64,000 bases of DNA. Source: Yuukianura sp. NJ FZ-2021 (taxonomy: Eukaryota). The stretch covers positions 992,001 through 1,056,000 of the forward strand of contig JAJCTO010000010.1 of NCBI GenBank assembly GCA_046563655.1, written 5' to 3'. The position numbers and the translations under genes are program-made. Below the pieces are notes generated by a model. That model ran no database searches. It was not told the DNA's origin and worked only from the letters and a program-made list of their open reading frames with translations. Within the stretch, counting starts at the first letter, position 1, and the number at the start of each line of letters is the position of its first letter. Shown here one piece after another: positions 3,001-64,000 of this stretch.

Positions 3001-3327
3001 TACCACAAGTGCATAAGTCTAACTACGATTTAGGTTTAACTTAGGGTTGAAACTTTACAACAAGGTGTTAAACGTTCTGAAAAATGGAATTTATGCCTTG
3101 TTACCGCTCATACCAAAATTCTTGGTATTCATCAAATAATGGTCCACTTCGTCGTAGTGCATAACTGACTAAATCACACGTTGAAAAACATGTTGTCAGA
3201 CTCCATCCTTGAGCTTAAACTAGAAGTGCCGGTGAAGTGTCAAGCATGCCTTCACTTCACATGCAAACCATGAGTTCTCACTTTGACACCATGAATCATG
3301 ATAACTCACACGTCGATGGAACTTCAG
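1..3327. repeat. Tandem satellite array, left segment (507/510-bp monomers, local 1017-bp dimer)
   Basis: The landmark AAGGTG(T/C)TAAACG recurs at about 14, 521, 1028, 1538, 2045, 2555 and 3062, giving spacings of 507 or 510 bp. Copies differ by only a few substitutions. Confidence 0.98.
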
Positions 3328-3450
3328 AGTAGTAATCACGTAGGGACTACTACCAAAAAACGTAAACAAAACATGACCTCGTTTTTGAGTTTGAGCTCCG
3401 CCAGTGCACATGCACTGGCGGAGTTTTCTAGACGATGATCTCATTCATCT
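3328..3450 (+). repeat. Left terminal inverted repeat of the Polinton
   Basis: The first 43 bp are identical to the reverse complement of the right end, and 57 of the first 58 match. Similarity then decays to about 120 bp, so the inner boundary is approximate. Confidence 0.92.
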
Positions 3451-3503
3451 TCTCACCCGAGCGTGGGAATATGTCCTCTTTGCACTTTCCTCCCACTCAG
3501 GGA

Positions 3504-3598
3504 AGAAGAGTATACGTGGAAGAGTTCACTTCCACAATCTAATCCTCTCATTCCATCTCCCAGTGTAGAAGAGTATACGTGGAAGAGTTCACTTCCAC
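3504..3598. repeat. Two perfect 32-bp direct repeats (3504-3535, 3567-3598), each with an internal hairpin
   Basis: AGAAGAGTATACGTGGAAGAGTTCACTTCCAC occurs twice, 63 bp apart. Each copy contains a GTGGAAG/CTTCCAC 7-bp stem. Confidence 0.85.
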
Positions 3599-4119
3599 CC
3601 ACTCTCGCTTGGTAGAAAACTGATGAGGGAGGGTTGGGTGTGCTTTTTTTTAACACATTTGAGCAACACAAAAACGAAACTGAGTTCAGCTGTTCATAAA
3701 CCTTGAAGACGACACTTGCAGTGATGAGAATATGTCTGGTTTCAAAATTAACAAAAAAAGTCTCAATTGAAATTACAATTGAAATTAAATGTGAGGTTAG
3801 GAAATTTTTGGAGACAAAAAGAAAAGCTATTAAAATGTTGTGACAATAAGCTGTGTTTTGCTCGGGATTTTGGATTTAAACAAAGATTCAACTCACTACT
3901 TCATTACTAATTTAAAATGTACATATGAGGCTATCAGATGAGATATCATGTTTGGAGGAGGGAAAAAATCTATGTTATGACATTAAGCTGTATATGTCTC
4001 GGGATTTTTTAAGTTGGTTAAACATCTAGAAGTAAAATTTGAAGTTTGATGAGAAAATTATTTAAGTTGTTATTCAGGAGACTACTGCCCTGGTGGAGTA
4101 GGAGCTTGCTGTTGATTCA

Positions 4120-4347
4120 TTGAGTAATAGTCTTCTGTTTTGTATTTTGAGTTTTCGCCGAAACAAGCATACGGTCAACTTTGAGGTCAGCTCTATTCCG
4201 TACGTTTTGCGTCGGCTGTCTACATTCTACTTGAGGACAACTGGAGGAGGTGCGGAACAGTTGGCTACACTCAAGGCGACTCTGGAGACTTGCCTCAGCG
4301 ACATTGAAACCTTCAACCAGGAGCTGGAACATGTCCCACACGACTAA
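4120..4347 (+). CDS. Possible 3' part of a small unknown gene (start uncertain; may be a last exon or a pseudogene)
   Basis: Open frame that is more GC-rich than its flanks and has a helical-looking C-terminus. AATAAA follows at 4373, and it converges on the protease gene. There is no ATG start and no recognisable homology. Confidence 0.3.
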   Translation: MSNSLLFCILSFRRNKHTVNFEVSSIPYVLRRLSTFYLRTTGGGAEQLATLKATLETCLSDIETFNQELEHVPHD

Positions 4348-4457
4348 CTTTCCCTAACTTTTCACTTGGTAAAATAAAAATTTGTTAGCAATTACATCAA
4401 AACAAACGAGAGAGAGAGAGAATTTAGATTTTGTGAGATTTTATTTTTTTTTTAAAT

Positions 4458-4985
4458 TTATTTGAATGGAGTACAACATTGATTAAGGTTGGAGAAGGAA
4501 GGAGAAGAGTTTTTTGAGAGTCTCCTAAGCTTTTTTCTTACAAATTGTCTAACTAGCCTATCATTTCTTTTGGAGTTGGAGTTAAAGTTGCAGTAGATTG
4601 ACATGAGACAGCAAGTATGGTAAAGTTTGTAGAGAAAATAGATTGCATATTCTCCACACACTTGGGAGTTTGGGCTTTGAAGAGTCCGGATGTTTTCCAC
4701 AATTGAAGTCTGGAGCCGAGATGCAAAGTTTGAAAAGGCCTTGTCGTAAAACTCCACACCCAACCCGTACGAGTCAATGAATTTGAGGGAAGCCTTGGAA
4801 TTTTCTCGAAACAGGGCCACCCAATGACTTCCGGGAGATGTGGATGGATCCGAGTTGACAACCAGCAGCAGAGGATAACGCCGAACCTCAAGGTGATCCA
4901 AATAGTCACACGGAATAACTTGAAAGGTGGCCTGCGTCGGCTTCAAAAATGATGACAGGTAGGTGAAAATTTGTCGTGTCTCCAT
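4458..4985 (-). CDS. Adenain-like (adenovirus-type) cysteine maturation protease, ~175 aa
   Basis: Motifs NSDPSTSPGSHWVA (His), FIDSYG (Asp) and LQSPNSQVCGEYA (Gln, Cys). The likely ATG is at 4985, just past the capsid stop, rather than 5087 as in the ORF track. Confidence 0.93.
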   Translation of the reverse strand: METRQIFTYLSSFLKPTQATFQVIPCDYLDHLEVRRYPLLLVVNSDPSTSPGSHWVALFRENSKASLKFIDSYGLGVEFYDKAFSNFASRLQTSIVENIRTLQSPNSQVCGEYAIYFLYKLYHTCCLMSIYCNFNSNSKRNDRLVRQFVRKKLRRLSKNSSPSFSNLNQCCTPFK

Positions 4986-4992
4986 CGTCTCT

Positions 4993-6348
4993 CTATCCGC
5001 TGGCAGTGCTGGTTGCGCTGTAGTCTTTCCAAAAGACGTTCTTGCTCGAGTCAATGTAGAGAACTGCCTGGTATTCGGCATAGACAATCACAGTAATAGC
5101 CTTGGCAACAGCCTTTTTAAACTTCAACTCAATTTTCACATTTCCATGTTTTGGAGGTGCAAAGCCTTCTCGAGTATGTCGCAAGTTGTAAATCATCAAA
5201 GGTTGTTTCTTATACTCGGCTCTGGTCATGTCAATTCCGACATCTTCGTTGGACATTCCCAGACCGTAAAAGAGATTGTTGTAGAGCTGAATGTACTGAT
5301 CTCCTTCCCAATCCAAGTGCATTGCCAGAGATGAACTTTGATCTCCGTTGACAGTAACGTTGAGATGGTTAAAGTCAAAGTGAGAAAAATTGTAGGGATT
5401 CGTTGTGATTGTACCCATGTAGTCTTCCGATTCCAAAAGTCCAATTATAATTCTGTCTGGAAGGAGCCCACTCAGCAAATTTTCATTTATACTTTGCAAA
5501 CTCCCAGGTCCAACCGTGTAAGTTTTGAGTTCCACCCGACGAAGAGGATATGTAATTGAACGTCCCAGTTCCCACTCTTTGAGGATTGACGTTACGAGTG
5601 AGGGAAGAAGAGTATGCTTTTGAACAATGATTCTGGCCTCGGAAATTTGAACTTGATACTTTCCATCTGCTTTGTCAGCGATTAAACAAAATGCAGGAGA
5701 GGATCGTAGGAAGCTGATGCGAACATCAATTCCAGGAATCAGAAATTTGTTTTGGGCAAAAATGTCTCCAAATGGACGTCCAATCAACTCAACACTCTTG
5801 CTTCCCTTTGTCAAATCGAATCGAGTTTTGTAACCATCCTCTACTGTTGTGCTCTTGCTGCTAGGATCCTTGTCTTTGTAGTATAGAGAACCCTGGGCTT
5901 GTGACTTTTTGAATTCCTTGTTGTAACCGAGTAGAGTTTCAAGGTAGCTTCGGTAGGCGTATTGATTTGAGGATGGTGTGATGAGAGTCTCATTGAAATA
6001 AACGCTGAGTTGCTGAAACAGGGTATGTAGAAAATTGTTTGCAGGTGCGACAAGTTCCTCTGCCGCCAGAGCAGTTCCATTTTCAGCAACAATTCTCGCT
6101 TTGATGTACAACTTTGTCTCGGACAAGTCCAAAAAGTGTGTATCATTTCCTTGTATGTAAAATTCGACGGGAGCCAAACTGTCCGCTAGAGATGTAATTG
6201 GATGATACTCGGTTTGAATTGTCGACAAAAGGCTGACATCAAAAGCAGGTTCTTCAAACAAATTTGTCTCTGAACGGATAAAAGTGTAAGGAGCAGCCGG
6301 CCCTGAGGTTGTCCCTCCGTACCCTTTTGTTGTTTTTACGCGTGGCAT
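4993..6348 (-). CDS. Major capsid protein (double jelly-roll; Polinton PY), 451 aa, intact
   Basis: Typical Polinton MCP motifs: EYHPITSL, PVEFYI, LDLSETKLYIKARI, NNFLHTLFQQ, YAYRSYLETLL, PDRIIIG, NPYNF. Size and position next to the protease fit. Confidence 0.92.
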   Translation of the reverse strand: MPRVKTTKGYGGTTSGPAAPYTFIRSETNLFEEPAFDVSLLSTIQTEYHPITSLADSLAPVEFYIQGNDTHFLDLSETKLYIKARIVAENGTALAAEELVAPANNFLHTLFQQLSVYFNETLITPSSNQYAYRSYLETLLGYNKEFKKSQAQGSLYYKDKDPSSKSTTVEDGYKTRFDLTKGSKSVELIGRPFGDIFAQNKFLIPGIDVRISFLRSSPAFCLIADKADGKYQVQISEARIIVQKHTLLPSLVTSILKEWELGRSITYPLRRVELKTYTVGPGSLQSINENLLSGLLPDRIIIGLLESEDYMGTITTNPYNFSHFDFNHLNVTVNGDQSSSLAMHLDWEGDQYIQLYNNLFYGLGMSNEDVGIDMTRAEYKKQPLMIYNLRHTREGFAPPKHGNVKIELKFKKAVAKAITVIVYAEYQAVLYIDSSKNVFWKDYSATSTASG

Positions 6349-6351
6349 TTT

Positions 6352-6793
6352 TTAGAAAATGTACCTCGTACCACCGACTCTCTTACGATTCTTTGTTCGG
6401 CGTCTCTTATTTCTTTTGCTTTTAGCCTTCTTTGACTTTTTTCGCCTTGGACCGTTTGCTGGTTTTCCTCGTAGTCGTTTGATGCCTCGTTTCCTTGACC
6501 TCACACCTCGAATGCCCGAACCCGTCTGATTCATAACATCCCTACCCATACTCTTAAGTGCTTCCCAGCCGTGCGATTTCAGAGATTCCTTGATGGGTCT
6601 TTTGTTCAAAATAAAGTCAGAGGCGACACCTCCTACGGCATCTGCCGCATGTGGCAGTACGTACTGCTTAAGAAACGGAAAAAGCCGACGTGCAATTGCA
6701 CCAAAAACTCCTCCAAGACCAGCCCCTGACGGGTCACGTAAATTAGAATAATTGATTCGACCAAAACCAACATTATAAACATAATTTTGACAT
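6352..6793 (-). CDS. Basic core-like structural protein (~146 aa) with an apparent one-base insertion just after the start codon
   Basis: The frame extends upstream of the ORF-track start as ...RDPSGAGLGGVFGAIARRLFPFLKQYVLPH..., then QTGSG and a K/R-rich tail. The ATG at 6793 (AAAATG context) joins this frame if one A is removed from ATGTCAAAATTAT. Confidence 0.7.
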
Positions 6794-6970
6794 TTTTTAA
6801 ATTTTTATTTTGCTTTTTTTAACCTTTTTGACGACGAACCCCACTAAAGTAGATTGTGGTGGGGGAAAATCCACCACTACCAAATTGATTTTGTGAAAAA
6901 AATGAATCGACAGGAAAGTCTCCAGCACAATTGTAAGGGAGGGAGGCAGAGTGGTGTCCAGAAGTTGACC

Positions 6971-7902
6971 TCATGTCTTCCGTTCGCGAAAGCGAAGTGT
7001 AGCCGTGAGGTTACCAAACTCAAATGGCATCCTTTCCCCCACCTCGTTCATTATATACAAATGAATAGTATCAAATTGAGAGACGGCCAGCTGCATGTAG
7101 TGGGCATGAGTGAATTCATGAGAGTGTTGTTTTCGAAATTTTCCCTCATAGTTGACCACTCGAAGAATTGGCGCAAGAGCATCTCCAATGAATTGAGGCC
7201 GGATGAGGTTGCAGTAGACGAAAAGTTTTGTTTGTCCAGCATTCAAAAAGACTGGATACGCTCCTTCTCCTTCGTAAAGATAGAATCCATCTGCAGGTAG
7301 GGCTCCTCTGACGACTTGGTTCGCTGTCTGCAATTCTCCTCCACCCATCCCCAGAATGTCGGCTACTTGTGGAGAAAACTTGATTGTAGTTCCCTCCTTC
7401 AAGGGTACTTGAAGATGCTGGATTCGATTCGAAACTGAGAGTTGGGTAGCATATCGTGCAGAAAACTCAATAGTTGAGTGTCAGTCATCAAACGTCGGTG
7501 TGTTTTGGTTGGAATTTCCAAAACTTTTGGAGGTGAAAATGCACGCTGATTAGCAGAGCGACGCTGTCTTTCTCGAAACGAAATGCTCTTGTCATTCATA
7601 TCCAGTTCATTTACAGCAGCAGCGACTGTCTCTGCACCTGTTGGCGCGGCGACAAAAGATGGTGGTGGCAACTGGACCCGTTTCGTAAAAATTGTTCTTC
7701 CTGCTCCCACAAACGCATTTCCATAAGTATAGCTCAAGTCGGTCAGGGCCACCTCCCATTGATCTCCAGGCAGACTGATGGAACTTGCCAACTTATTCTT
7801 GAAATCGCAAATTAAATTGCCTGGAAAATAGTCCATCGAAGCATTCGATTGAAGTGTTACGTAGAAAGAGTTGGATGTACTCGAACCAGTTGCAGTCATC
7901 AT
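6971..7902 (-). pseudogene. Minor capsid protein/penton (single jelly-roll; Polinton PX), split by a frameshift within ~7399-7480
   Basis: ORF 7399-7902 has the N-terminal signature FYVTLQSNAS..FPGN...F...L...WEVAL. ORF 6971-7402 has the C-terminal signature LFVYCNLI.PQ.IGD..APILRVV...FDTI...GE.MPF..G...ATLRFR. Confidence 0.88.
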
Positions 7903-7917
7903 CTTGTCGTTGTCAAA

Positions 7918-8167
7918 GCACGAATCCTTTTAAATAAAAGCACGAATCCATAAAAATGTGAGGCACGAATCCTAAAAATTGGTTAGCACGAATCCTTAAA
8001 ATTAAACTTACCCTCAAATCCAAAAATACGTAGGTAGGGATGAGTAGAATTGTAAGCTCGAATCCACAAGAATGGTTGGCACGAATCCTAAAAGTCTTTT
8101 CTCAACAATTTGTGTTGATCCAAAAGAAGCAAAAGCACGAATGAACAAAATCGCTGGGCACGAATCC
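7918..8167. repeat. Phased array of a 10-bp motif, GCACGAATCC, with unique ~12-13-bp AT-rich spacers
   Basis: Exact copies start at 7918, 7940, 7963, 7986, 8079 and 8158. Variants are at 8056 (GCTCGAATCC) and 8135 (GCACGAATGA). Adjacent copies are 22-23 bp apart. Confidence 0.9.
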
Positions 8168-8274
8168 TCAAGAAATGATCACGCTGGATCCTCCCCACAC
8201 AACGTTCGGCTGCCCGATCAGCCCCCTCACGGGCGCGCAAGGGGGGGGACCTTGCGTCCGACTCCATCTCTCCT

Positions 8275-9258
8275 TCAAAACTTTTCCCAACGACAGAAGT
8301 TTTCTCCTCCTCCTCCTTTTTGACTCCTGGTCCCTCCTTTTTTGAACACATCTTTTCCAGTTGGATTAGCAGCCCTCCTAACAAGCCTCTTTGCAATAGG
8401 TGTAGCTTTAGCTCTAGTAGGTGAGGGACGATGAATTTGAAATGGTGGTGGTGGTTGGGGGTTTTGTTCAAAAACGTCTTCTATCTCTTCCTCTTCTTCC
8501 TCATCGGTTCCCCTATCATTCTGGCTGGCACTTGGAGTGTTGTAATTTGATCCCGCCAGGTTCTGTTGTTGTCTTTGCTCAAAAAATATTGCTGGGGAAG
8601 TGATTAGGCGTGAAATTCCAGAGTTTGGAGCAGATCCATCCACAATTTTTGGAGAAATGTACCTCTGCAATTGGTCTCGAACTTGTATGAATCCTTCGGG
8701 AGCTCTAATATGCTTTCGATCCTTGAGGTTTATGAAATATTGTAGTATGTTTACAATGTCAGAGCCTGGTAGACGTTGCTTTTGAATCAAAACTTCAAAC
8801 TTTTCATTCCATACAATGTCATTGTAGCGCATCAAATGCAAAAGTTTTCTTGCATTTTTACTTCCTCTTAGCTGCTCCAAAATGTATGGTTCAGTAACAT
8901 CTAAAAGATTTTCTACTCTGATGCTGGGATTGGAAATTATACTATCTCCAAGTTGAGTTCCGTAAAAAAGATTTGATTCATTTTCGTCTTCTTCTTGAAA
9001 TCCCTCATGTTGACGGTCACGGTCACCCGCAACATTTTTCACCAAAATTGGTTTGGATTCTAAAATAAGACGTTTTTGATGGAGACGACGAGCTAGGTCT
9101 TGATACAAAATTGCTTTTATGTCATCTGGTATGTTTGAATTTGACAACACGCTCAGTTTCGGGTCTGCGGAATCGACGGCAGGGATAGAAACGTCATTTC
9201 CAACTAATTTGGTTTGCTGTTGAAGTTTTTGAAAATCTGCTTCGTTCACCAACTTCAT
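8275..9258 (-). CDS. Conserved Polinton hypothetical protein, 327 aa
   Basis: Intact ORF. IVWNEKFEVLI....LPGSDIVNIL resembles a motif that recurs in Polinton structural-module proteins. The C-terminus is QKGGG...W. Confidence 0.75.
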   Translation of the reverse strand: MKLVNEADFQKLQQQTKLVGNDVSIPAVDSADPKLSVLSNSNIPDDIKAILYQDLARRLHQKRLILESKPILVKNVAGDRDRQHEGFQEEDENESNLFYGTQLGDSIISNPSIRVENLLDVTEPYILEQLRGSKNARKLLHLMRYNDIVWNEKFEVLIQKQRLPGSDIVNILQYFINLKDRKHIRAPEGFIQVRDQLQRYISPKIVDGSAPNSGISRLITSPAIFFEQRQQQNLAGSNYNTPSASQNDRGTDEEEEEEIEDVFEQNPQPPPPFQIHRPSPTRAKATPIAKRLVRRAANPTGKDVFKKGGTRSQKGGGGENFCRWEKF

Positions 9259-9263
9259 TCGCT

Positions 9264-9632
9264 TTATTCCGGCTGAGTTTTCTTTTTGAAAAATCCCACG
9301 GCAGTACTAATTGAAGAGGGTAGTACAGCTCCCAACAAAAGGGGTAGTATGGCTCCTCCCTTTTGAGACAAGAGTCGTTTTTTCTTAAACTTGAGACTTG
9401 ACCTCCGCCGACCCTTGAGTATTGCGAGAATGGTTTTTTTGTATGGTTTCAGGCGTTTGACAGTGTTGGCGGTGATGCCCACGTTCCCTTTGTACACGTT
9501 AAGTATACACTCACAAATGCCTTGAATTTCCTCTTTGCTTGCGTTTTTAATCAATTCTCGCCGCTGTTTAGGTGACGTTGCTTTGGACAAATAGCTCAAA
9601 AACTCTCTGTTTTGCGCTACACACTTGGACAT
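9264..9632 (-). CDS. Conserved small basic Polinton protein (putative virion core or membrane-active precursor), 122 aa
   Basis: The pattern PKQR..LIK.A...I..ICEC.LN..KGNV......K.LK.YKK....QKGG followed by a hydrophobic tail (AILPLLLGAVL) is characteristic of a small Polinton/adintovirus protein. Confidence 0.82.
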   Translation of the reverse strand: MSKCVAQNREFLSYLSKATSPKQRRELIKNASKEEIQGICECILNVYKGNVGITANTVKRLKPYKKTILAILKGRRRSSLKFKKKRLLSQKGGAILPLLLGAVLPSSISTAVGFFKKKTQPE

Positions 9633-9733
9633 GTTGACCAGCCAAGGAGTTGGGCGTCAATGAACCTTTTCACTCAAGAAGCTGCTAACAATAAAGACCA
9701 TGACACTTGTCGCATTTTAATTTAGTCGTCAAA

Positions 9734-11191
9734 ATGTCAGAGCTAGAAAAACAAATCAAAGAGGATTACGTAAATCCAAATGTCCAGCATAGCTTTTCGG
9801 GTGCATATCAAGTTAAAAAAAGTTTGAAAAATCATTCAAAAGATGTCGAGCAGTCACTCTACTCCATACCAGTATATACTCTGCACAAACGAGCTCGGAA
9901 AAGATATCCTAGGCGAAGAGTATTCATTCCTGGACTTAAGCAACAAATGTGTAACGCCGGAAATAGGCGTTCGCCATTTCAGGAAGGGCCCACGGGGGAG
10001 ACCGATGTTTGCCCCGTGGGGTCAAGGGCCCTAAAGACCCCTTCCGGGCGGCCGAGGTTCCATGCCAGTCAGTCCATTGTTGCGAGGAGGTGAAATGAAG
10101 TCTTTTTGTTCTTATTAAGTGTCGTACTTCTTTGTTCGGAGTTTTGCTTACTTCTTCGACTTCTGTACTGACTTAACTTAGGGCAGTAACTACCGGGTAT
10201 TTATACCAGGTGCTTAATTACTGCTAATTACTCAATTAAGGTTGCGGTAAACATAGGAAGTTCGGAGCTCTAACCGCATTACCGGCTACGGCTGTGGTTA
10301 CCTTAATTGGGCTAATTCACTAATCAATTTAGCCTTGTGGTTTTTGTCTTAATTAGCCTGGCCTTGCTATTACACTTCCTGCCTAGTGACTAAATACAAG
10401 GGCTGGGGTCCCTTAGCGACTAAGTGACTAAGTGTACTAAGTACTCTAAATATGGGTACTCTAAATCTGGGTGTAACAAATGGTAGCAGATCTGATTGAC
10501 GTAAGCAAGTATTGCGACTCAAACAACGGATACAAGTTCTTGTTGACTTGCATCAATGGGTTTAGTAAAGTTGCAGATGCAATTCCACTCAAGAATAAAA
10601 ATGCCCCAACTGTGCGAAATGCTCTGGCAAAGATTATAGAAAAGCGAGGGCCTTGCAAGTACTTGCAGGTAGATCGGGGCAAAGAATTCATCAACAAAAC
10701 TGTGGAAAAGTTACTCAAACAGCATGGAATCCATATGTTCAGTACAGGATCCGAGTTGAAGGCGGTAATTGTGGAGAGATTCAACCAGACTCTTATGAAT
10801 AGAATTGCTCGCTACATGACTTACAAGGGAACGGAGAAATTTTCTACCTGCGATCGTAGAGAATTACAACAATTCATACCACTCTTCCATCAAATGCACA
10901 CCAAATCAAGTCAATGAAGAAACGAAAACTGACGTTTTTCTAAATCTCTACAAAGACAGAGTCGTAAAGCGTCGTAAAAAAACGAAATTCTCCGTTGGGG
11001 ACACTGTTCTGATTAGTAAAATCAAAAAAATCTTTGAAAAGGGCTACTCGAGGTCTTGGAATCGAGAGCAGTTCAAGGTTTCCAAAGTTTGTTATACTAC
11101 TCCAACCAGCTATCAGCTTCAGGATTTAAAAGGAGAGTTCATCTTTGGTGTATTTTATGATCCGGAACTCCAGAAAATTCTTCATTCCTAA
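9734..11191 (+). pseudogene. Retroviral-type (rve, DDE) integrase, disrupted by a solo LTR and a frameshift near 10843
   Basis: Removing 9950-10482 gives in-frame ...PGLKQQ-MVADLIDV. DDE residues lie in ADLID, QVDRGKEF and VERFNQTL. After the shift the frame continues LPAIVENYNNSYHSSIKCTP...FSVGDTVLIS...FEKGYSRSW...FYDPELQKILHS to a stop at 11189-11191. Confidence 0.93.
9950..10478 (-). mobile_element. Solo LTR (529 bp), probably Ty3/gypsy type
   Basis: TG...CA ends with an imperfect terminal inverted repeat (TGTAACGCC...GGTGTAACA). The 4-bp TSD AATG lies at 9946-9949 and 10479-10482. Orientation is inferred only from a minus-strand TATAAATA (10198-10205) followed by TAAGT/TCAGT. Confidence 0.88.
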
Positions 11192-11374
11192 CCTTGAAGT
11201 CCGCGGGTGATGAACTGTGGTTGCATTTTTAGTATCTGGAGATCATTTTCCGAGTTTTTGTGTAAACGAAATTCTACAACTACAATCACAGTGTTTAAAT
11301 CCTTTTCTTGCAACTGCAACTTGAACAAATCGTCACGAGGACAATCTGTGAAGCTCCACCCACCCACTCAAGAA

Positions 11375-11737
11375 ATGGCTACTCCTGGACCAAGCTTTGT
11401 ACCATCCGAAGACATGGAAGGTCACGAAAGTTCACCTCCATACACCCTACATTCTACTCGTCAAAAGAAAAAGAAGCATTATCCAGCACACACGCGCAAA
11501 GTATCATCGGTTCCCATGATTGTGGAGATTCGTAAACAATTCCCAAATCCTCTTCCGCCGCCTCAAGTCATGCTCGAGAATGGATGGACCCTCTTTTTTG
11601 CTGATCATCTTGGGAATACTACAGACAACTCTTATCTTCACATTCGAAACCAGTTGGAAGCGGGTGTTGGAATCTGTATTCCTGCAGATTTGTTTGACTG
11701 TCTAGTTCAAGGACTACTTGAACTCAAACGAACTTGA
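11375..11737 (+). CDS. Hypothetical protein, ~120 aa, possibly a PC4-like ssDNA-binding fold
   Basis: ATG at 11375 (AAATGG context) lies within ORF 11207-11737. A disordered N-terminus with KKKK is followed by YLHIR......GICIPADLFDCLV. The gene converges on the ATPase. Confidence 0.55.
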   Translation: MATPGPSFVPSEDMEGHESSPPYTLHSTRQKKKKHYPAHTRKVSSVPMIVEIRKQFPNPLPPPQVMLENGWTLFFADHLGNTTDNSYLHIRNQLEAGVGICIPADLFDCLVQGLLELKRT

Positions 11738-11756
11738 GGGGTAAGTTACCTTGAAT

Positions 11757-12413
11757 CTATTTTTTCAAATAGACGATGCATGATGGGTCGGGAAAAAGAT
11801 TTGAACGGAAACGGTGTTCATCATCCTGCTGTTGACTCAAGTCCATAAACAAGTAACTGTTTGGCTTGTTTTTTGTTGCGTCCTCGTATGCAGCTTCAAG
11901 GACGGGATGACTTTTTCCATTGTTCATTTGTCTTCCCAGAAACTGAATAATTGTAGAGTCTCTCGGATTTCGAAATAACGCCAAATATTTGCTGTTTAAC
12001 GTCAAGTTTCTACAGTTTTTGTAGAAAAAGTTTTGCATTGTAATGATTAGAGACATTGATCTGTGATGACTCCCTCGTGTCACCATTGTGCAAACGTCCT
12101 TGGACATTGCAATCTCTTCCATAAAGTCGTCGAGAATAACGAGAGTGGGAACTCGGTTTCCCTCGGCCACCTCCACCTCCATACCCTTTTGAAATTCAAC
12201 ACAAACGTCCTCCTTGTCCTTGAAAGCTTCTCGCACAGAACTTGCAAACGAAGGCAAATCTTCACCGTAGCAATAGATTACTCGCTCAATTTTAGGCTCA
12301 ATCACTTCATCCTTCCTCAAAATTAATTGATGAATTAATGTACTTTTTCCAGATTGCGTGGCTCCTGCACAAACCATCACAAACGGATGACTCAGCCCGA
12401 AATGAAAACTCAT
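11757..12413 (-). CDS. A32/FtsK-like genome-packaging ATPase, 218 aa, intact
   Basis: Walker A GATQSGKST, Walker B LVILDD, RGSHH arginine-finger region, ITMQN, FRNPRD and YLFMDL. Confidence 0.95.
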   Translation of the reverse strand: MSFHFGLSHPFVMVCAGATQSGKSTLIHQLILRKDEVIEPKIERVIYCYGEDLPSFASSVREAFKDKEDVCVEFQKGMEVEVAEGNRVPTLVILDDFMEEIAMSKDVCTMVTRGSHHRSMSLIITMQNFFYKNCRNLTLNSKYLALFRNPRDSTIIQFLGRQMNNGKSHPVLEAAYEDATKNKPNSYLFMDLSQQQDDEHRFRSNLFPDPSCIVYLKK

Positions 12414-12507
12414 CTCTACTACAACTTAAAAAAAACACTTGTGTTTGGTCAAACGGTTAAATTCAAACTAAAATTTAAATTTTTATTTAATTGGCTTAAA
12501 TAATAAC

Positions 12508-15500
12508 TTAAACTTGTTGCATTTGTTCGTCTTGTTGTTGTTCTTCTTCTTCTTCTTGTTGGTACATTGGGATTTGGTAGTGACCAAATCGGAGAGACTC
12601 GATTGGGGAAATGTAGTAGCCCGACTTATCCTCCAAGGCAGAAAGGCTCTGCTTGCATACGGTCGTTGTGTAAACTCGGTGGTCCAAACTTCGAATTGTG
12701 GTCATCCTAACACTGAGTGAAGATGACTCATCCAGCACACGAAGATAGTCATCAAAACGAAGTTGATTCCTCACCGCAGCTCTCACCGTGCCCTTGGCTT
12801 TTTTTCGGTCCGAGACGATGTTATTCTGGTCCAGAGAGCGGACGCAGTACAGTTTTGGCTTGAGTGCAACAACCTCAGTTACAATTGAATTGGCAAATTC
12901 GTCCTTGAAGTAGCCGCACTTTCCTTGATGTTGCTGGGAAGACAAGTGTCCGAGGGTTGGATGCTTTGGATCATAGTTGGAAGTGTCGAGTCGGCAGTCT
13001 GGATCTTGGGTCATTTGGTAAAAGTCTTGGTAGAGATCTGGAGTCTTGATGTGCAACAGGAGACTGTCCGTGTCCGTCATAACCAGTCTCATGTTTTCGC
13101 CATACTTTTTCGGCATGACATTGTAGTAGAAATCGTACATGATTCGTTTGCTGTCATCCAAAACTGTAAGTCCAGCACTTATGTGCTTATTTAAACATAC
13201 TGAAAGCTTTTTCATCATGAACAAAACACACTCTTCGTGTAAAATTTTGAAACGTTTCACAGTTGGTTTTTTTCCATACTCGAAAACTTTTTGACGAGTC
13301 AGCGCAATGTTGATTCTCTTGTGCTTTCGAACATTTTGCAACAGTTTCCCAAACACAATGTTTCCCATCGCTTTCCAAAATTTCACATCAACTGGATTCG
13401 TGGCACTTCTCCTTCTCTGGATGCACATTTCAATGTAGGGACGCATAAGTGGTGCTTGTGTGAAACGAAGACCTCGGTGGATTTTTGTCAACTTGAGTCC
13501 CAACTGCAAAAACAACTTGAGCAGTCTGTAGTGGATAATGTAATTTTTTTTTGGGTAAAAGGTGCCCATCAGTTTGGATTTGTTGACTGAGGTCGGTCTA
13601 ACACCCAAATTTTCCATCATGTTTTTTGTGTAGGGGGACAAGTTTTCATATTCAATCATTCCTCGTTCTACTGCCAGTGGATAGTCATTGTGCTGATCAT
13701 GCAGTTCATCTGGATAGTCCAAGTCAACTTCCAAAATGAGCCCTTCTCTCTCCTCATCTCCCATCCTCAAAATTCTTGCAACTGCACTCTCCAAATCTGC
13801 GGTTCGTGCTTCAAAGCTCGGATCCCAGCGGAAATTCTTCCAAGGAACAAAGCATCTCAAACATGTGCTGTAGAGAAGATTGGCGTCCAACAAGCACAAG
13901 TAGCTTAGTGGTTTCGACGGGTCGTATTGAGCTCCCATGTAAGGATTGTTTGCTTTTGCATATCGAAGCCCCACAGCACAATTTCCACCACGAATTCCCC
14001 TCTCACACCACATGTACATGTCATCCACTTTCAAGTAGTCATAATCGACTCTTCCAATCAACATTGCAGCATCGTATGCAATTCCTGGAAGGGTCACGTA
14101 ATGAGCGGGGTCTAAGCGGAAATTTGTAATCATCGTATCTCTCAAGTCCTGGAAACAATCTGCAAACAAGCAAACGTCCAACTTCACATAAAGGTTGTGA
14201 TAGTCTCTCAGTGTTCTACATCCAAACTCTTCCCACACCTTCAGTGCTCTTTCGTAATCTTCGTCGGAAATTCCTTCTCCTCTCAGTTCACTGTAGAATG
14301 CTTCCTTGCCGGGCAGTCCAGTCTCATCCATCTTTTCAAAACTGTCCATGTACTCGTATGGGTAGACCCCCTTTTGAAGCAGAAAAGACATTGCTCCTGG
14401 ATGATGACGAAATGCACCTTTGGTCACTTGGAACTTATTCACATCCTTTTTCGCCATCATTTCCACCAAGTCTGCCAAGCTGGAACTGATAAACTGATAA
14501 GAGTCTATAAACTTGAGAGCATTTCCGGCATGAGTTGTACACTCCATTGATGTAAACTTTTCTTCTGACGTAGGTAGGGGTAAAACATGTTTGAACAAGT
14601 TGCTTTTCAACGCTTGAACTATAAAGTGAGAGTCATAGTTTCGAAAATTGTGAAAAACGATGGGGATTTTTTTGGTGACTTGAAGTTGTAAGTTGCAATT
14701 GTTACAACTCACTCCTCGTATACGTCCCGTGAGGTGACAATGGTCAATCACTGTGTCCCTCACATTTCGAAACCCAGCACCACAGTGGATGCAGTTTGTC
14801 GCTGCGGTTCTCATATTATAAAAATCAATTTCTGTGTATGATGGGTCACGTCCAACATCTTGTTTCAATTTTATAAAATATGGTTCAGTAATATTCACCA
14901 AATCTTCGAGTAAATGCTGAGCAGCGTTTCGACCACAAAAGGTCAATGGTTCCTCGCACATCCTCCCGGTTGGTCCTAGAATCACAAAACTGTAGCCAAA
15001 GTCAACGTGTTCATTCAGCACATTTCCAATTCACATTGTTCCACATTCTTGTCGTAAAATGCACTCAAAGTCACAAACAATGACAAAAGACACAGGTAGT
15101 GTGTGGCGAATGTGCTTGAATGTGTACTTGAATTCTGGTGGAAAGCACACACCCTGTGGTTCTACTGCGGCACAGAAAATTTTATGTCTGTCCAGTGTCT
15201 CCTTTGATCGCCAGTAGTGGAGACAAAAATTGCAGATAAACTTTTCAGCACGCACTTGCTTCCCAGAAGGCGAGATAACCCAAAAGATGGATTTTCGTCC
15301 GTTTGTTTAAGCAAAACGAAATGCGAATCACTTCCGTCTATGAGTAATAATAAATCAATGTGCTTTTCCCTCTTTTCTTGACATACATGAAGTGGAAACA
15401 CTTTCAGCTTCTGTTTCGCGTAATTCGGATCCAACTCATCTCTGTGTTCATACCCATACACATTCACTGACAATTTAGGATTAAAGTGGTGAAACTTGTC

Positions 15501-17011
15501 CATTTGGTCTAGGTCCATCGGAAAGTTGACGCAGTCCCAGTCCACAGTGTTTGGAACATTGTCGTAGCTTCTGGGGTTAACGACATGGTACCACGGAGTT
15601 GATCCATTCTTATATAACGGATATAATTCGGACAAAATGGCATACTTGAAGCAGAATTCGTCAACATTTCTAATATTCACAATGCAACACTTGCGTCTTA
15701 TACTTGCTGGCGTGGGGATCCAACCGCGTCCTCGTTGGATTTGGTAAACAGAAAACTTGAAGGTAATCCATTTGAACCGGCTAACTTTCCACCCAGATCC
15801 CTTCCGCAGAAATACTGCTATTGTGTCTCCAATTTTGTTTGACATCAACCGAATTGCGTTTTCTATCATCCGTGGTTGCAGACAGACATGTGCAAAAGAA
15901 CGAAATGGGAAGTCTTCCACCTGATGTTCATCCGGATTATAACGCAGTTCTCGTGTCATTTCTACAAGTGCAACACTTGTCACTAAATACGAGCCAATTT
16001 CATCGTGAATCCTTGTCATCAACTCCCTCAAGGTCGCTGAGCAATGTGAAAACACGCCACGCACGTCCACAAACACATTTTCCTCAAATCTAGCCGTATA
16101 CTCGCGAGTTGTACCTCCAAAAGCTACCACTTCATCAAAAGGTACGCGGTTGAATGCAGCACAACCACCCTGCTGATTTGGAGTAACATTTCGAACATAA
16201 ATTTCGGGATGAACGTTGAATTGGTGTTCATCTAAATGTCCCGGAAATTCAAAGTTTATTCCGCATTGGGCGCAAAACCGCCTCTGGTAGTTTTGTAATT
16301 CCAAAACCTCAGGATCTGTCATTTCATACAAAACAAATACGTTTCACGAAAATTTAATACAAAATATAATAATTTGCAGCTTACCTTCTATTTCGTTCCG
16401 AAGGTGTTCAACAACCTGCTGCGGCCTCGGAATACCTGGCGACCTTGAACTTCTTGAACCAGCTGATCGTAAAATAAACAAGATGAATGTCATCTCAAAC
16501 AAAAATTTCATATAATTACAACTTTTCTTACATGGCAATTGAATGCTTGGATGAACTTGCTCCATATGACTTATAAAGTCTCGCTCTCTAAGTCCTCGTA
16601 TGTTACAAGTTTCGCAGCCGAACAGTCTTTCGCAAAATGTTTCCCTCGCGCGATTATCTTCAACTCGGACACCTTGTAACAAAAGGTAAATTGTACAACC
16701 ACTTTCTATCAACATTGGTTAATATTCATCGATTAGTCTGCTATTGTTCTAAACATACCTTGAATTTCAACATCCTGAAAAGTGCAACTAATGTGCGACA
16801 AATCTTGAATCTGATCGTCTTGTAACAGTTCGCCTAATGTACAAAGATTTTGTTTTAACAATATCGTTTAACATGCTATTGTACTAAAATTACCTGGGAT
16901 TTCAATGTCAGGATGAGTCCTTTGGACATGATTCAAGAACTCTGGTGCACTTAAGTTTCCTAACGCACATCTTTCACACGTATACAAAATCGACTTATTG
17001 TAACCCGACAT
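12508..17011 (-). pseudogene. Protein-primed family B DNA polymerase (~1400 aa). Predicted five exons: 17011-16894, 16833-16759, 16672-16532, 16462-16385, 16315-12508. One frameshift (~15258) and one in-frame TGA (15031-15033).
   Basis: Motifs include ExoI CDFE, an EndoVII/HNH-like DHCHLTG..RG..CNNCN, ExoII HNFRNYD, KGVYPYEY, motif A LDANLLY, motif B K..GN..FGK and motif C TDTDS. The N-terminal region has GSGW and NVDEFCF. The upstream exons join in frame through GT-AG introns. The polymerase identity is secure; the 5' exon model is inferred. Confidence 0.9.
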
Positions 17012-17224
17012 TTTCGTTGTATATGTACACTGCTTCTAAGTTGGTAATCAACTAAACTCACCCACTTGCATGCATTTGCCTAATGGTAAGTTTGGAGCAA
17101 AGTAATGAAAATGCAGTCAATCTCCCCTCCTGGTTTCCTCCCAACTCTTAAGTACAAAAGAATTTGTGTGAGAGGGAGGATGGTGGATCTCACTCTCACA
17201 CAGGCAGCCCCGTGTGGGAAAATT

Positions 17225-17347
17225 GATGACATCATAATCATTGTCTCGTCAACTCCGTCAGTGCACATGTACTCACAGAGTTCATATCGAAAACGAGGTC
17301 ATGGTTTGTTTACGTTTTTTGGTAGTAGTCCCTACGTGATTACTACT
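17225..17347 (-). repeat. Right terminal inverted repeat of the Polinton
   Basis: Ends ...TTTGTTTACGTTTTTTGGTAGTAGTCCCTACGTGATTACTACT, the reverse complement of the sequence from 3328. The inner boundary is approximate. Confidence 0.92.
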
Positions 17348-20300
17348 CTTCAGGGAAAAACCGACTATTACATTTTCTAAATCAAAGTTGAACATTCAGC
17401 ATTTTTGGTCATTTCTGAATAGAAATTTTGGAAAATACTTTTTTATATTTCCTACCGACTAGCACATTAAATACATCATGTCTGAAAACTTCTGCCCAAC
17501 AATAGTCTGAAATTGTTATTTAGCACAACTCCACCATACAACAAGTGCATAAGTCTAACTACGATTTAGGTTTAACTTAGGGTTGACAGTATACAACAAG
17601 GTGTTAAACGTTCTGAAAAATGGAATTTATGCCTTGTTACCGCTCATACCAAAATTCTTGGTATTCATCAAATAACGGTCCACTTCCTCGTAGTGCATAA
17701 CTGACTACATCACACGTTGAAAAACATGTCAGCCTCCATCTTTGAGCTTAAACTAGAAGTGCCGGTGAAGTGTCAAGCATGCCTTCACTTCAGATGCAAA
17801 CGATGCGTTCTCACTTTGACACCATGAATCATGATAACTCACACGTCGATGGAACTTCAGGGAAAAACCGACTATTACATTTTCTAAATCAAAATTGAAC
17901 ATTCAGCATTTTTGGCCATTTTTGGATAAAATTTTTGGAAAATACTTTTTTATATTTCCTACCGACTAGCACATTAAATACATCATGTCTGAAAACTTCT
18001 GCCCAACAATAGTCTGAAATTGTTATTTAGCACAACTCCACCATACAACAAGTGCATAAGTCTAACTACGATTTAGGTTTAACTTAGGGTTGACACTATA
18101 CAACAAGGTGTTAAACGTTCTGAAAAATGGAATTTATGCCTTGTTACCGCTCATACCAAAATTCTTGGTATTCATCAAATAACGGTCCACTTCGTCGTAG
18201 TGCACAACTGACTAAATCACACGTTGAAAAACATGTCAGCCTCCATCTTTGAGCTTAAACTAGAAGTGCCGGTGAAGTGTCAAGCATGCCTTCACTTCAG
18301 ATGCAAACCATGCGTTCTCACTTTGACACCATGAATCATGATAACTCACACGTCGATGGAACTTCAGGGAAAAACCGACTATAACATTTTCTAAATCAAA
18401 ATTGAACATTCAGCATTTTTGGCCATTTCTGAATAGAAATTTTGGAAAATACTTTTTTATATTTCCTACCGACTTGCACATTAAATAGATCATGTCTGAA
18501 AACTTCTGCCCAACAATAGTCCGAAATTGTATTTTAGCACAGCATCACCATACCACAAGTGCATAAGTCTAACTACGATTTAGGTTTAACTTAGGGTTGA
18601 AACTTTACAACAAGGTGTTAAACGTTTTGAAAAATGGAATTTATGCCTTGTTACCGCTCATACCAAAATTCTTGGTATTCATCAAATAACGGTCCACTTC
18701 CTCGTAGTGCATAACTGACTAAATCACACGTTGAAAAACATGTCAGCCTCCATCTTTGAGCTTAAACTAGAAGTGCCGGTGAAGTGTCAAGCATGCCTTC
18801 ACTTCAGATGCAAACCATGCGTTCTCACTTTGACACCATGAATCATGATAACTCACACGTCGATGGAACTTCAGGGAAAAACCGACTATTACATTTTCTA
18901 AATCAAAATTGAACATTCAGCATTTTTGGCCATTTCTGAATAGAAATTTTGGAAAATACTTTTTTATATTTCCTACCGACTTGCACATTAAATAGATCAT
19001 GTCTGGAAACTTCTGCCCAACAATAGTCCGAAATTGTATTTTAGCACAGCATCACCATACCACAAGTGCATAAGTCTAACTACGATTTAGGTTTAACTTA
19101 GGGTTGAAACTTTACAACAAGGTGTTAAACGTTCTGAAAAATGGAATTTATGCCTTGTTACCGCTCATACCAAAATTCTTGGTATTCATCAAATAATGGT
19201 CCACTTCGTCGTAGTGCATAACTGACTAAATCACACGTTGAAAAACATGTTGTCAGACTCCATCCTTGAGCTTAAACTAGAAGTGCCGGTGAAGTGTCAA
19301 GCATGCCTTCACTTCACATGCAAACCATGCGTTCTCACTTTGACACCATGAATCATGATAACTCACACGTCGATGGAACTTCAGGGAAAAACCGACTATT
19401 ACATTTTCTAAATCAAAATTGAACATTCAGCATTTTTGGCCGTTTCTGGATACAATTTCTGGAAAATACTTTTTTATATTTCCTACCGACTAGCACATTA
19501 AATACATCATGTCTGAAAACTTCTGCCCAACAATAGTCTGAAATTGTTATTTAGCACAGCATCACCATACCACAAGTGCATAAGTCTAACTACGATTTAG
19601 GTTTAACTTAGGGTTGAAACTATACAACAAGGTGTTAAACGTTCTGAAAAATGGAATTTATGCCTTGTTACCGCTCATACCAAAATTCTTGGTATTCATC
19701 AAATAACGGTCCACTTCGTCGTAGTGCATAACTGACTAAATCACACGTTGAAAAACATGTTGTCAGACTCCATCCTTGAGCTTAACCTAGAAGTGCCGGT
19801 GAAGTGTCAAGCATGCCTTCACTTCACATGCAAACCATGCGTTCTCACTTTGACACCATGAACCATGATAACTCACACGTCGATGGAACTTCAGGGAAAA
19901 ACCGACTATTACATTTTCTAAATCAAAATTGAACATTCAGCATTTTTGGCCGTTTCTGGATACAATTTTTGGAAAATACTTTTTATATTTCCTACCGACT
20001 TGCACATTAAATAGATCATGTGTGAAAACTTCTGCATAACAATAGTCCAAAATTGTATTTTAGCACAGCTCCACCATACAACAAGTGCATAAGTCTAACT
20101 ACGATTTAGGTTTAACTTAGGGTTGACACTATACAACAAGGTGTTAAACGTTCTGAAAAATGGAATTTATGCCTTGTTACCGCTCATACCAAAATTCTTG
20201 GTATTCATCAAATAATGGTCCACTTCGTCGTAGTGCATAACTGACTAAATCACACGTTGAAAAACATGTTGTCAGACTCCATCCTTGAGCTTAAACTAGA

Positions 20301-62400: not shown

Positions 62401-64000
62401 TCTAACTACGATTTAGGTTTAACTTAGGGTTGAAACTTTACAACAAGGTGTTAAACGTTCTGAAAAATGGAATTTATGCCTTGTTACCGCTCATACCAAA
62501 ATTCTTGGTATTCATCAAATAACGGTCCACTTCGTCGTAGTGCATAACTGACTAAATCACACGTTGAAAAACATGTTGTCAGACTCCATCCTTGAGCTTA
62601 AACTAGAAGTGCCGGTGAAGTGTCAAGCATGCCTTCATTTCACATGCAAACCATGAGTTCTCACTGTGACACCATGAATCATGATAACTCACACGTCGAT
62701 GGAACTTCAGGGAAAAACCGACTATTACATTTTCTAAATCAAAATTGAACATTCAGCATTCTTGGCCATTTTTGGATAAAATTTTTGGAAAATACTTTTT
62801 TATATTTCCTACCGACTAGCACATTAAATACATCATGTCTGAAAACTTCTGCCCAACAATAGTCTGAAATTGTTATTTAGCACAGCATCACCATACCACA
62901 AGTGCATAATTCTAACTACGATTTAGGTTTAACTTAGGGTTGAAACTATACAACAAGGTGTTAAACGTTCTGAAAAATGGAATTTATGCCTTGTTACCGC
63001 TCATACCAAAATTCTTGGTATTCATCAAATAACGGTCCACTTCGTCGTAGTGCATAACTGACTAAATCACACGTTGAAAAACATGTTGTCAGCCTCCATC
63101 CTTGAGCTTAAACTAGAAGTGCCGGTGAAGTGTCAAGCATGCCTTCACTTCAGATGCAAACCATGAGTTCTCACTTTGACACCATGAATCATGGTAACTC
63201 ACACTTCGATGGAACTTCAGGGAAAAACCGACTATTACATTTTCTAAATCAAAATTGAACATTCAGCATTTTTGGCCATTTTTGGATAAAATTTTTGGAA
63301 AATACTTTTTTATATTTCCTACCGACTAGCACATTAAATACATCATGTCTGAAAACTTCTGCCCAACAATAGTCTGAAATTGTTATTTAGCACAGCATCA
63401 CCATACCACAAGTGCATAATTCTAACTACGATTTAGGTTTAACTTAGGGTTGAAACTATACAACAAGGTGTTAAACGTTCTGAAAAATGGAATTTATGCC
63501 TTGTTACCGCTCATACCAAAATTCTTGGTATTCATCAAATAACGGTCCACTTCGTCGTAGTGCATAACTGACTAAATCACACGTTGAAAAACATGTTGTC
63601 AGACTCCATCCTTGAGCTTAAACTAGAAGTGCCGGTGAAGTGTCAAGCATGCCTTCACTTCACATGCAAACCATGAGTTCTCACTTTGACACCATGAATC
63701 ATGATAACTCACACGTCGATGGAACTTCAGGGAAAAACCGACTATTACATTTTCTAAATCAAAATTGAACATTAAGCATTTTTGGCCGTTTCTGGATACA
63801 ATTTTTGGAAAATACTTTTTTATATTTCCTACCGACTTGCACATTAAATAGATCATGTGTGAAAACTTCTGCATAACAATAGTCCAAAATTGTATTTTAG
63901 CACAGCTCCACCATACAACAAGTGCATAAGTCTAACTACGATTTAGGATTAACTTAAGGTTGACACTATACAACAAGGTGTTAAACGTTCTGAAAAATGG
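38426..64000. repeat. Tandem ~510-bp satellite array, right segment (~50 monomers), running off the window
   Basis: Continuous head-to-tail copies with local variant blocks. Confidence 0.98.

Follow-up and report, generated by a model that had tools for sequence, protein, structure and literature searches.

It is customary to regard Polintons and other endogenous DNA viruses as free of introns, and surveys of them therefore call genes with open reading frame (ORF) finders of the prokaryotic type (PMC10120064, PMC8097293; here and below, cited articles are represented by the part of their text that was available). The locus described here raises the question of whether this treatment suits the protein-primed DNA polymerase (pPolB) gene of a 14-kb Polinton/Maverick element that lies in 64,000 nt of Yuukianura sp. 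NJ FZ-2021 DNA (assembly GCA_046563655.1, contig JAJCTO010000010.1, positions 992,001 to 1,056,000; hereafter the window). A first-pass annotation, made from the letters of the window, had proposed that four phase-1 introns add zinc-finger exons to the N-terminus of this polymerase. On comparative and compositional grounds, we consider it probable, at roughly 70%, that the gene is truly spliced through these four introns. The locus would then be the 5' end of the pPolB gene of an adintovirus-like Polinton, interrupted by four GT-AG spliceosomal introns that are short, AT-rich and in phase 1. The spliced product would gain ~140 residues at its N-terminus, namely the start with finger 1, an acidic segment, the second finger and a linker of Ser, Arg and Pro, ahead of finger 3, a terminal-protein (TP) domain, an OTU protease domain and the exonuclease/polymerase region.

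The start codon, the intron coordinates, lengths and phases, and the internal exon lengths of the first-pass annotation were all reproduced from the window (Table 1). The joined frame is 1566 nt long and stop-free until the TAG at 15164-15162, running into the polymerase ORF as had been claimed, and its product carries the motif C-x2-C-x12-H-x4-H at residues 12, 84 and 152. The earlier observation of P-x-I after each of these three fingers also stands, and it extends to H-P-x-I in every case; exon 1, for example, terminates in H-P-D-I-E-I-P-G at its donor. All three internal exons are multiples of three in length. The GC content of the introns is 0.23-0.30, compared with 0.39-0.51 for the exon pieces between them. 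As is expected of GT-AG introns, the four segments have GT..AG ends, keep the frame upon removal and differ from the exons in composition. Since introns 1, 2 and 4 carry in-frame stops, the upstream fingers would be readable together with the polymerase only after splicing.

This arrangement was compared with chance expectation in several ways. First, the six frames of the whole window contain three instances of the strict finger motif, all of them belonging to this model; in 200 block shuffles of the element the motif appeared 0.01 times on average and at most once. Second, the pooled GC content of the introns is 0.261 against 0.372 for the region, and when four segments of the intron lengths were placed randomly within 16240-17011, an equally AT-rich set was obtained in one of 20,000 placements. 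Furthermore, the AT-rich troughs end exactly at the GT and AG dinucleotides. Third, log-odds of codon usage, trained on the other long ORFs of the element, favored the frame of the model in four of the five exons (exons 1, 2, 3 and 5).

A metagenome scan gave five close loci (L003-L007), of which two pairs are informative for the exon-intron structure. In L006 and L007 (40% identity), a 124-nt exon 1 contains an ATG and a C2H2 finger ending in H-P-E, and the introns that follow measure 95, 87 and 82 nt in L006 and 79, 93 and 81 nt in L007 with a GC content of 0.26-0.30. All six are in phase 1 in a frame-keeping model, and the internal exons between them are 66 and 159 nt (L006) or 69 and 162 nt (L007) long. 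The main exon of both loci opens with a basic R-P-K-R-R-R stretch followed by the conserved finger, and this stretch lies at the same distance from a D-P-E motif as the exon 4 linker of the window. Between L006 and L007, identity is 69% in exon 1 and 73% in the main exon, compared with 56-60% in the introns and 51-53% in shuffled controls, while the 52% of exon 2 and the 59% of exon 3 do not exceed the level of the introns. The second pair, L003 and L004 (47% identity to the window), aligns without gaps in the exons, with 56 of 64 positions identical upstream (88%) and 277 of 300 downstream (92%); the phase-1 intron is 96 nt long in one and 73 nt in the other, and 56 of its 97 aligned columns are identical (58%). 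This intron ends three codons upstream of the D-P motif, where exon 5 of the window starts. In P0003/L005, the P-R-P of the basic stretch lies 12 residues ahead of D-P-E, and the window shows the same spacing once intron 4 is removed. Taken together, the upstream exons of the window and of L006/L007 appear to share an architecture, which falls short of proven orthology. A second intron considered in L004 (41 nt) was too short to claim.

Part of the regularity at the 5' end of the gene can be attributed to duplication. The end of exon 1 (~25 nt) and the start of intron 1 (~40 nt) align with the end of exon 2 and the start of intron 2 at a local score of 28 (300 shuffles averaged 10.7 and peaked at 20), indicating that at least one unit of "exon end + intron" was duplicated in tandem; in the other five pairs of exon-intron units the duplication signal was not significant. 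Because duplication of a unit also copies its phase, the four shared phases do not count as independent coincidences: the phases given by the first-pass annotation are exact, and their agreement is partly due to the paralogy of units 1 and 2. Sister copies of the element were viewed through contigs of four DNA runs, two from the same organism (X1 and X2), one from a second organism (X4) and one from a metagenome (X5), which were compared over 14900-17350. One X1 contig goes back 77 nt, from 16889 to 16813, and X2 contigs leave the window sequence at 16813, 16837 and 16872. Sister copies thus seem structurally different around intron 1 and exon 2, where the unit duplication is seen. None of the three joints in the DNA-run contigs equals the removal of any of the four introns. 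A diverged contig of the X5 metagenome matches 16567-16629, the core of finger 2, in 51 of 63 letters, and its extension beyond the match (one 30-letter consensus at a depth of ~2.6) still resembles the V-H-P-S-I-Q stretch with changes at third positions, a pattern that gives only a hint.

Several observations weigh against a gene spliced in this way. First, a lax search for GT..AG paths returned dozens of other open paths (72 were counted with a mis-set window anchor, a figure which shows merely that many exist), and little weight can therefore be given to the open frame by itself. With no in-frame stop in intron 3 and a single one in intron 4, retention and splicing are not separable by frame alone, and the codon usage of exon 4 shows no preference for the frame of the model. 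Second, the ATG at 16322-16320 could start a one-finger protein like the homologue P0004. Third, one sister contig has 4 differences in 220 intron nucleotides and 6 in 440 exon nucleotides, and four of these six exon differences are replacements, with no visible purifying selection. Such an even spread is what neutral decay of transposon copies would give. The expectation of the first-pass annotation that exons are conserved and introns diverged is borne out in the relatives L003 and L004 and is not seen among the young sister copies. Fourth, BLASTP gave no alignment between exon 1 of the window and exon 1 of L006, and a blastp-short search with the upstream exons of L006 and L007 against 2220 six-frame fragments of the window gave no significant match, the best E-values (0.17-3) falling on other fragments. 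Fifth, the fingers score below the Pfam cut-offs: finger 1 reaches 21.4 bits (E = 2.2e-4) with zf-C2H2_ZNF462_11, whose cut-off is 27, finger 2 reaches 12.8 bits against a cut-off of 29, and finger 3 reaches 14.2 bits against 25.2 for PF00096. Single fingers seldom reach Pfam cut-offs. At last, intact vertebrate Mavericks have been described with eight ORFs that lack introns, "in agreement with Kapitonov and Jurka (2006)", in the available text of Barreat and Katzourakis 2021 (PMC8097293).

The ATG at 16322-16320 (minus strand) is an in-frame codon of intron 4 with an A at -3, located two codons ahead of exon 5. It is conceivable that the polymerase starts there with finger 3 alone, and that the upstream pieces are separate small zinc-motif genes or leftovers that are never joined. 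Such a start would fit the position of this codon just ahead of exon 5, the start Met of P0004 (a full-length relative of 1286 aa), which falls one or two residues from 16322, the small ORFs with paired CXXC motifs upstream of PolB that appear in the available text of PMC8502044, and the lack of detectable sequence relatives for the upstream exons of the window. However, exon 1 alone would give a peptide of only ~48 residues before the stop in intron 1, the relatives retain GT..AG sites through which an upstream ATG is connected in frame with the polymerase, and the AT-rich troughs stop precisely at GT and AG. Moreover, four of the five close loci (L003-L006) lack a Met in the stretch from the upstream stop to the conserved finger, and their start codon must therefore be supplied by another exon. 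We thus regard a late start as unlikely. Because the ATG aligns within two residues of the P0004 start Met, the alignment suggests that this codon may be an ancestral start, upstream of which the mini-exons were added.

The stop-free intron 3, whose length is a multiple of three, also brings up the question of whether splicing is real with a different set of exons, for instance with intron 3 retained, with other acceptors or with exon 2 skipped constitutively. The symmetry of all internal exons and the weak coding statistics of exon 4 would suit such a set, as would the departure of sister contigs in the exon 2/intron 1 region (at 16813, 16837 and 16872, and in the 77-nt back-joint). On the other hand, the donor of intron 3 (GTAAGA), its pyrimidine-rich acceptor region and its GC content of 0.25 resemble those of the other three introns, and we found no positive evidence for any alternative form. 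An exon set other than the five exons in Table 1 is therefore somewhat unlikely in our judgment.

One more explanation is that a once-continuous multi-finger N-terminus has decayed, broken by AT-rich insertions, duplications and point mutations, with the GT..AG ends and the phases arising from chance and shared descent. Under this explanation, the homologues with one to five N-terminal C2H2 motifs, mostly in a single ORF (36 of the best 150 listed), would resemble the earlier state. Also in its favor are the duplication that relates units 1 and 2, the equal and frame-keeping length of introns 3 and 4 (69 nt) with a single stop from exon 3 to exon 5, the many open paths given by lax path searches, and the decay of this copy elsewhere. 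Decay of this kind is nevertheless difficult to reconcile with the sister contigs of ~98% identity that cover 16095-16754 without gaps and with the same structure, and with relatives at 40-47% protein identity that show the same pattern with the frame kept and the exons conserved. The intron lengths of these relatives differ by non-multiples of three, and the AT-rich segments of the window are placed non-randomly. We consider the decayed N-terminus very unlikely, and the gene spliced through four introns is used as the working model below.

Table 1. Coordinates in the window of the element, of the predicted exon-intron model at the 5' end of its pPolB gene, and of the predicted domains and lesions of the polymerase.
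Feature	Position	Strand	Length	Description
Polinton/Maverick element	3328..17347	-	14,020 bp	Set in 510-bp satellite
Exon 1 (predicted)	16894..17011	-	118 nt	ATG 17011-17009 in AAAATG context; finger 1 (16913-16978)
Intron 1 (candidate)	16834..16893	-	60 nt	GTAATT..TTAG; phase 1; GC 0.23; in-frame stop present
Exon 2 (predicted)	16759..16833	-	75 nt	Acidic, no finger; 3' end partly duplicates that of exon 1
Intron 2 (candidate)	16673..16758	-	86 nt	GTATGT..CAAG; phase 1; GC 0.30; in-frame stop present
Exon 3 (predicted)	16532..16672	-	141 nt	Finger 2 (16551-16616); terminates in H-P-S-I-Q-L-P at donor
Intron 3 (candidate)	16463..16531	-	69 nt	GTAAGA..TCAG; phase 1; GC 0.25; no in-frame stop
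Exon 4 (predicted)	16385..16462	-	78 nt	Ser/Arg/Pro-rich linker with P-R-P
Intron 4 (candidate)	16316..16384	-	69 nt	GTAAGC..ACAG; phase 1; GC 0.25; one in-frame stop, TGA 16346-16344
Exon 5 start (predicted)	16315	-		Continues into polymerase ORF
Finger 3	16209..16274	-		Conserved finger at head of main ORF
Terminal-protein-like domain D1 (predicted)	15741..16148	-		Main ORF residues 66-201
OTU-like cysteine protease domain D2 (predicted)	15291..15710	-		Main ORF residues 212-351
Polymerase frame break in this copy	15255..15262 (near 15258)	-		Three-frame reading changes frame
Polymerase in-frame stop in this copy	15031..15033	-		Three-frame reading
Exonuclease and polymerase body of pPolB	12511..15030	-	840 codons	Open

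The main ORF of the locus (15165-16343, 393 residues), into which exon 5 continues, matched no Pfam family, and 2956 homologues at E <= 0.001 were obtained among 1.84 billion representative proteins. A protein word-index search returned one near-length match for this ORF and, for the 124-aa ORF that spans exon 3 to intron 4, no longer or near-length match. We modeled the main ORF with AlphaFold2 from 38 sequences at a mean pLDDT of 80.5. In the model, finger 3 (block pLDDT ~77) has strands at residues 22-23 and 30-31 and a helix at residues 34-44, corresponding to a beta-beta-alpha fold with invariant F31 and L37; the residues invariant in the window ORF and its three closest homologues are R22, C24, C27, F31, L37, D38, H40 and H45. 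The D1 model matched the little-finger/PAD domains of Y-family polymerases with a Z score of 8.6 (rmsd 2.6, 106 residues aligned; VIA-align), followed by further matches to Y-family polymerases at 8.2, 8.1, 7.9 and down to 7.4. A Z score near 8 is middling alone, and it agrees with the published result for Polinton D1. The D2 model matched many OTU chains, the best with a Z score of 6.7 (rmsd 3.8, 110 residues aligned) and others at 6.4-5.0, and among the 38 sequences C231 is invariant while D228 and H341 are at least 90% conserved. A Foldseek search against the PDB gave no match at E <= 0.001; the domain matches come from VIA-align. The main ORF is thus predicted to consist of a finger, a TP-like domain and an OTU-like protease domain. 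Between the OTU domain and the exonuclease motif, at ~15171-15233 on the minus strand, a zinc-type motif C-x2-C-x13-H-x4-C is read in the frame that follows the break at 15258, and it is conserved in P0002-P0004 and in most of the 38 homologues. The polymerase body also contains an Endonuclease VII-like (His-Me finger) insert at ~14677-14811 on the minus strand, a combination that recurs in ESM Atlas clusters of arthropod proteins. We also weighed a fifth intron at the AT-rich trough 14853-14916 and rejected it, since the polymerase coding sequence runs open through this stretch.

The order of these domains corresponds to that of Krupovic et al. 2024 (PMC11161782), in whose available text D1 of the Polinton polymerase is a TP with an LF/PAD-like fold and D2 is a viral OTU (vOTU) with a proposed cut of the TP from the polymerase. 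The TP-like domain, the OTU domain with conserved Cys and His and the exonuclease/polymerase order were recovered independently by our model, and the claim of the first-pass annotation that the N-terminal region of pPolB includes the TP holds, the fingers being N-terminal to it. The difference is that here a C2H2 finger and two more on mini-exons precede the TP in an apparently spliced gene; the words "zinc" and "intron" are absent from the main text of PMC11161782.

All three fingers fit the classical C2H2 spacing C-x2-4-C-x12-H-x3-5-H, with x2, x12 and x4 in each. One to five strict C2H2 motifs, with few exceptions N-terminal, are present in 36 of the best 150 homologues listed. Eight finger-bearing homologues that were looked up are all ORF calls on contigs with the fingers within one ORF, and two of the homologues, P0009 and P0032, exceed the Pfam zf-C2H2 cut-off. 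The nearest clusters in the ESM Atlas consist of arthropod and nematode proteins with zf-C2H2 in 49-50% of their members, and other Atlas clusters join zf-C2H2, Endonuclease_7 and DNA_pol_B_2. Of 54 fetched loci with a stop-bounded ORF start, only one has a C2H2 motif ahead of the match within that ORF, so that the fingers are clade-specific. N-terminal C2H2 fingers are common on this polymerase clade, mostly in a single ORF. Single-ORF multi-finger polymerases such as P0009, P0032, P0061 and P0089 resemble the window in having one to five C2H2 fingers ahead of the same TP/OTU region; they differ in that theirs is one continuous ORF, whereas in the clade of the window the modules are apparently parted by introns.

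In human adenovirus, the start codon of pTP and Pol lies in a tiny exon upstream. Adenovirids are related viruses with spliced pTP and polymerase (E2B) mRNAs, and the available text of PMC11304566 describes a turkey adenovirus pTP ORF built from two exons and confirmed by RNA-seq. Their TP is separate and finger-free and their introns are long, whereas in the window the TP is fused to the polymerase, the candidate introns are 60-86 nt long and the exons encode fingers. Within the Polintons, the vertebrate Mavericks of PMC8097293 are the same kind of element with the same core genes, and the window polymerase has four candidate introns instead of an uninterrupted ORF. The adintoviruses of Starrett et al. 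2021 (PMC8502044) include an "Alpha" class of OTU-pfam03175 PolB and "Oncoid" ORFs upstream of PolB. The window shares with them the OTU ahead of a pfam03175 polymerase and the small zinc-motif pieces upstream of PolB; it differs in that its pieces are C2H2 fingers that can be joined in frame via GT-AG introns, and the string "splic" does not occur in the available text of that article. A large protist survey likewise assumes endogenous viruses without introns in its available text (PMC10120064). None of the literature listings and article passages covered here describes a Polinton polymerase that is spliced or bears fingers; earlier notes may exist in Kapitonov and Jurka 2006, Pritham et al. 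2007, Repbase or the PMC11161782 supplements.

Based on the four-intron model, the following course of expression can be proposed. Transcription would take place in the nucleus through host RNA polymerase II, and the host spliceosome would join exons 1 to 5. The OTU domain would then cut the TP part from the polymerase, as hypothesised in the available text of PMC11161782. Because the fingers are N-terminal to the TP, they would stay with the protein part covalently attached to the 5' DNA ends of the element, and could serve there in binding DNA or protein and in targeting to the nucleus. The extension itself probably grew at least partly by tandem duplication of the "exon end + intron" unit, which would explain the matching phases. 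Tandem finger arrays that read DNA have short linkers. The three fingers here are ~50-70 residues apart, without short linkers, and for this reason protein binding or low-specificity tethering to DNA or chromatin, together with nuclear import through the basic stretch, seems more likely than sequence-specific reading of the terminal inverted repeats (TIRs). Since all internal exons are symmetric, exon skipping is conceivable. A further step, distinctly unlikely in our estimate, would be that the end-bound TP carries a modular finger array, in which symmetric mini-exons multiply by duplication and are included or skipped by the host spliceosome. If so, end-bound proteins with one, two or three fingers would occur across copies or tissues, which would tune the recognition of termini or the tethering to host chromatin such as the satellite, and would represent exon shuffling and alternative splicing inside the replication protein of a virus-like transposon.

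If this clade truly splices its polymerase gene, ORF-based surveys cut off the true N-terminus of the polymerase. Expression would have to go through host nuclear RNA polymerase II and the spliceosome, and this dependence on the host spliceosome bears on the question of a transposon or a virus lifestyle. The TP domain, which structure modeling has recently defined, would also gain a previously undiscussed partner in the C2H2 fingers, found in 36 of the 150 homologues listed, and the pairing of fingers and TP offers a testable idea for how the protein finds the ends of the element or the nucleus.

The element itself is well delimited. Its TIR arms (3326-3388 and 17287-17349) are 63 nt long, 97% complementary and 13.9 kb apart, and identical hexamers at 3322-3327 and 17348-17353, beside the termini at 3328 and 17347, form a 6-bp target-site duplication. 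In the polymerase ORF at 12508-15021, Pfam recognizes DNA_pol_B_2 (PF03175; 31.6 bits against a cut-off of 25.8, E = 1.1e-7) and Endonuclease_7 (35.6 bits against 23.6, E = 8.7e-9), and at 10480-10917 the rve integrase domain (PF00665; 46.2 bits against 32.6). The element thus has the features of a Polinton, with TIRs, a 6-bp duplication, a protein-primed family B polymerase and a retrovirus-like integrase, and the Polinton assignment of the first-pass annotation is well founded; by these sequence features we class it as a Polinton/Maverick of the animal, adintovirus-like kind. Pfam matches to packaging ATPases (Pox_A32, Adeno_IVa2 and AAA, 16-22 bits) were weak and sub-threshold, and the match to an adenain-like protease (Peptidase_C5) was weak at 18.4 bits against 21.3. 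No capsid family appeared in the Pfam scan, and no further capsid search was made. The remainder of the window (1-3321 and 17354-64000) is occupied by a satellite of 507-510-bp units. Tandem Repeats Finder reported no satellite, because the period of 507-510 exceeds the program limit of 500. The units are mutually 80-100% identical, and some (52899-63931) have open frames of 102 codons.

As it reads in the window, this copy cannot make a full-length polymerase. All contigs crossing the frame break at 15258 (three of X1 and two of X2) have a short indel relative to the window whose length is not a multiple of three, and all contigs crossing 15033 in the stop codon (three of X1, two of X2 and one of X4) read a different letter there. 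The two polymerase lesions therefore appear to be private to this copy and the family appears to be young. The integrase region is also broken, with a frame change near 10880 and a stop at 11189-11197. The split integrase (10477-11188, plus strand) was considered as a spliced gene and rejected, as it reads better as a frame break and a stop. Contigs of X4 and X5 are 95-99% identical to parts of the element, including the finger exons, which points to very close relatives of the host or a recent spread of the element between hosts.

Two further features of the element stand out. The 10-mer GCACGAATCC occurs in six exact copies within 7918-8167 on the plus strand, mid-element and between the gene blocks; four of the six copies are spaced 22-23 nt apart, and none of 100 shuffles reaches six copies. 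This repeat may be a putative regulatory or binding array. The ORF at 6848-7297 (plus strand), which runs opposite in strand to the morphogenetic genes, has a weak match to a ZAP-like CCCH zinc finger (E = 0.0022, 17.9 bits against a cut-off of 27).

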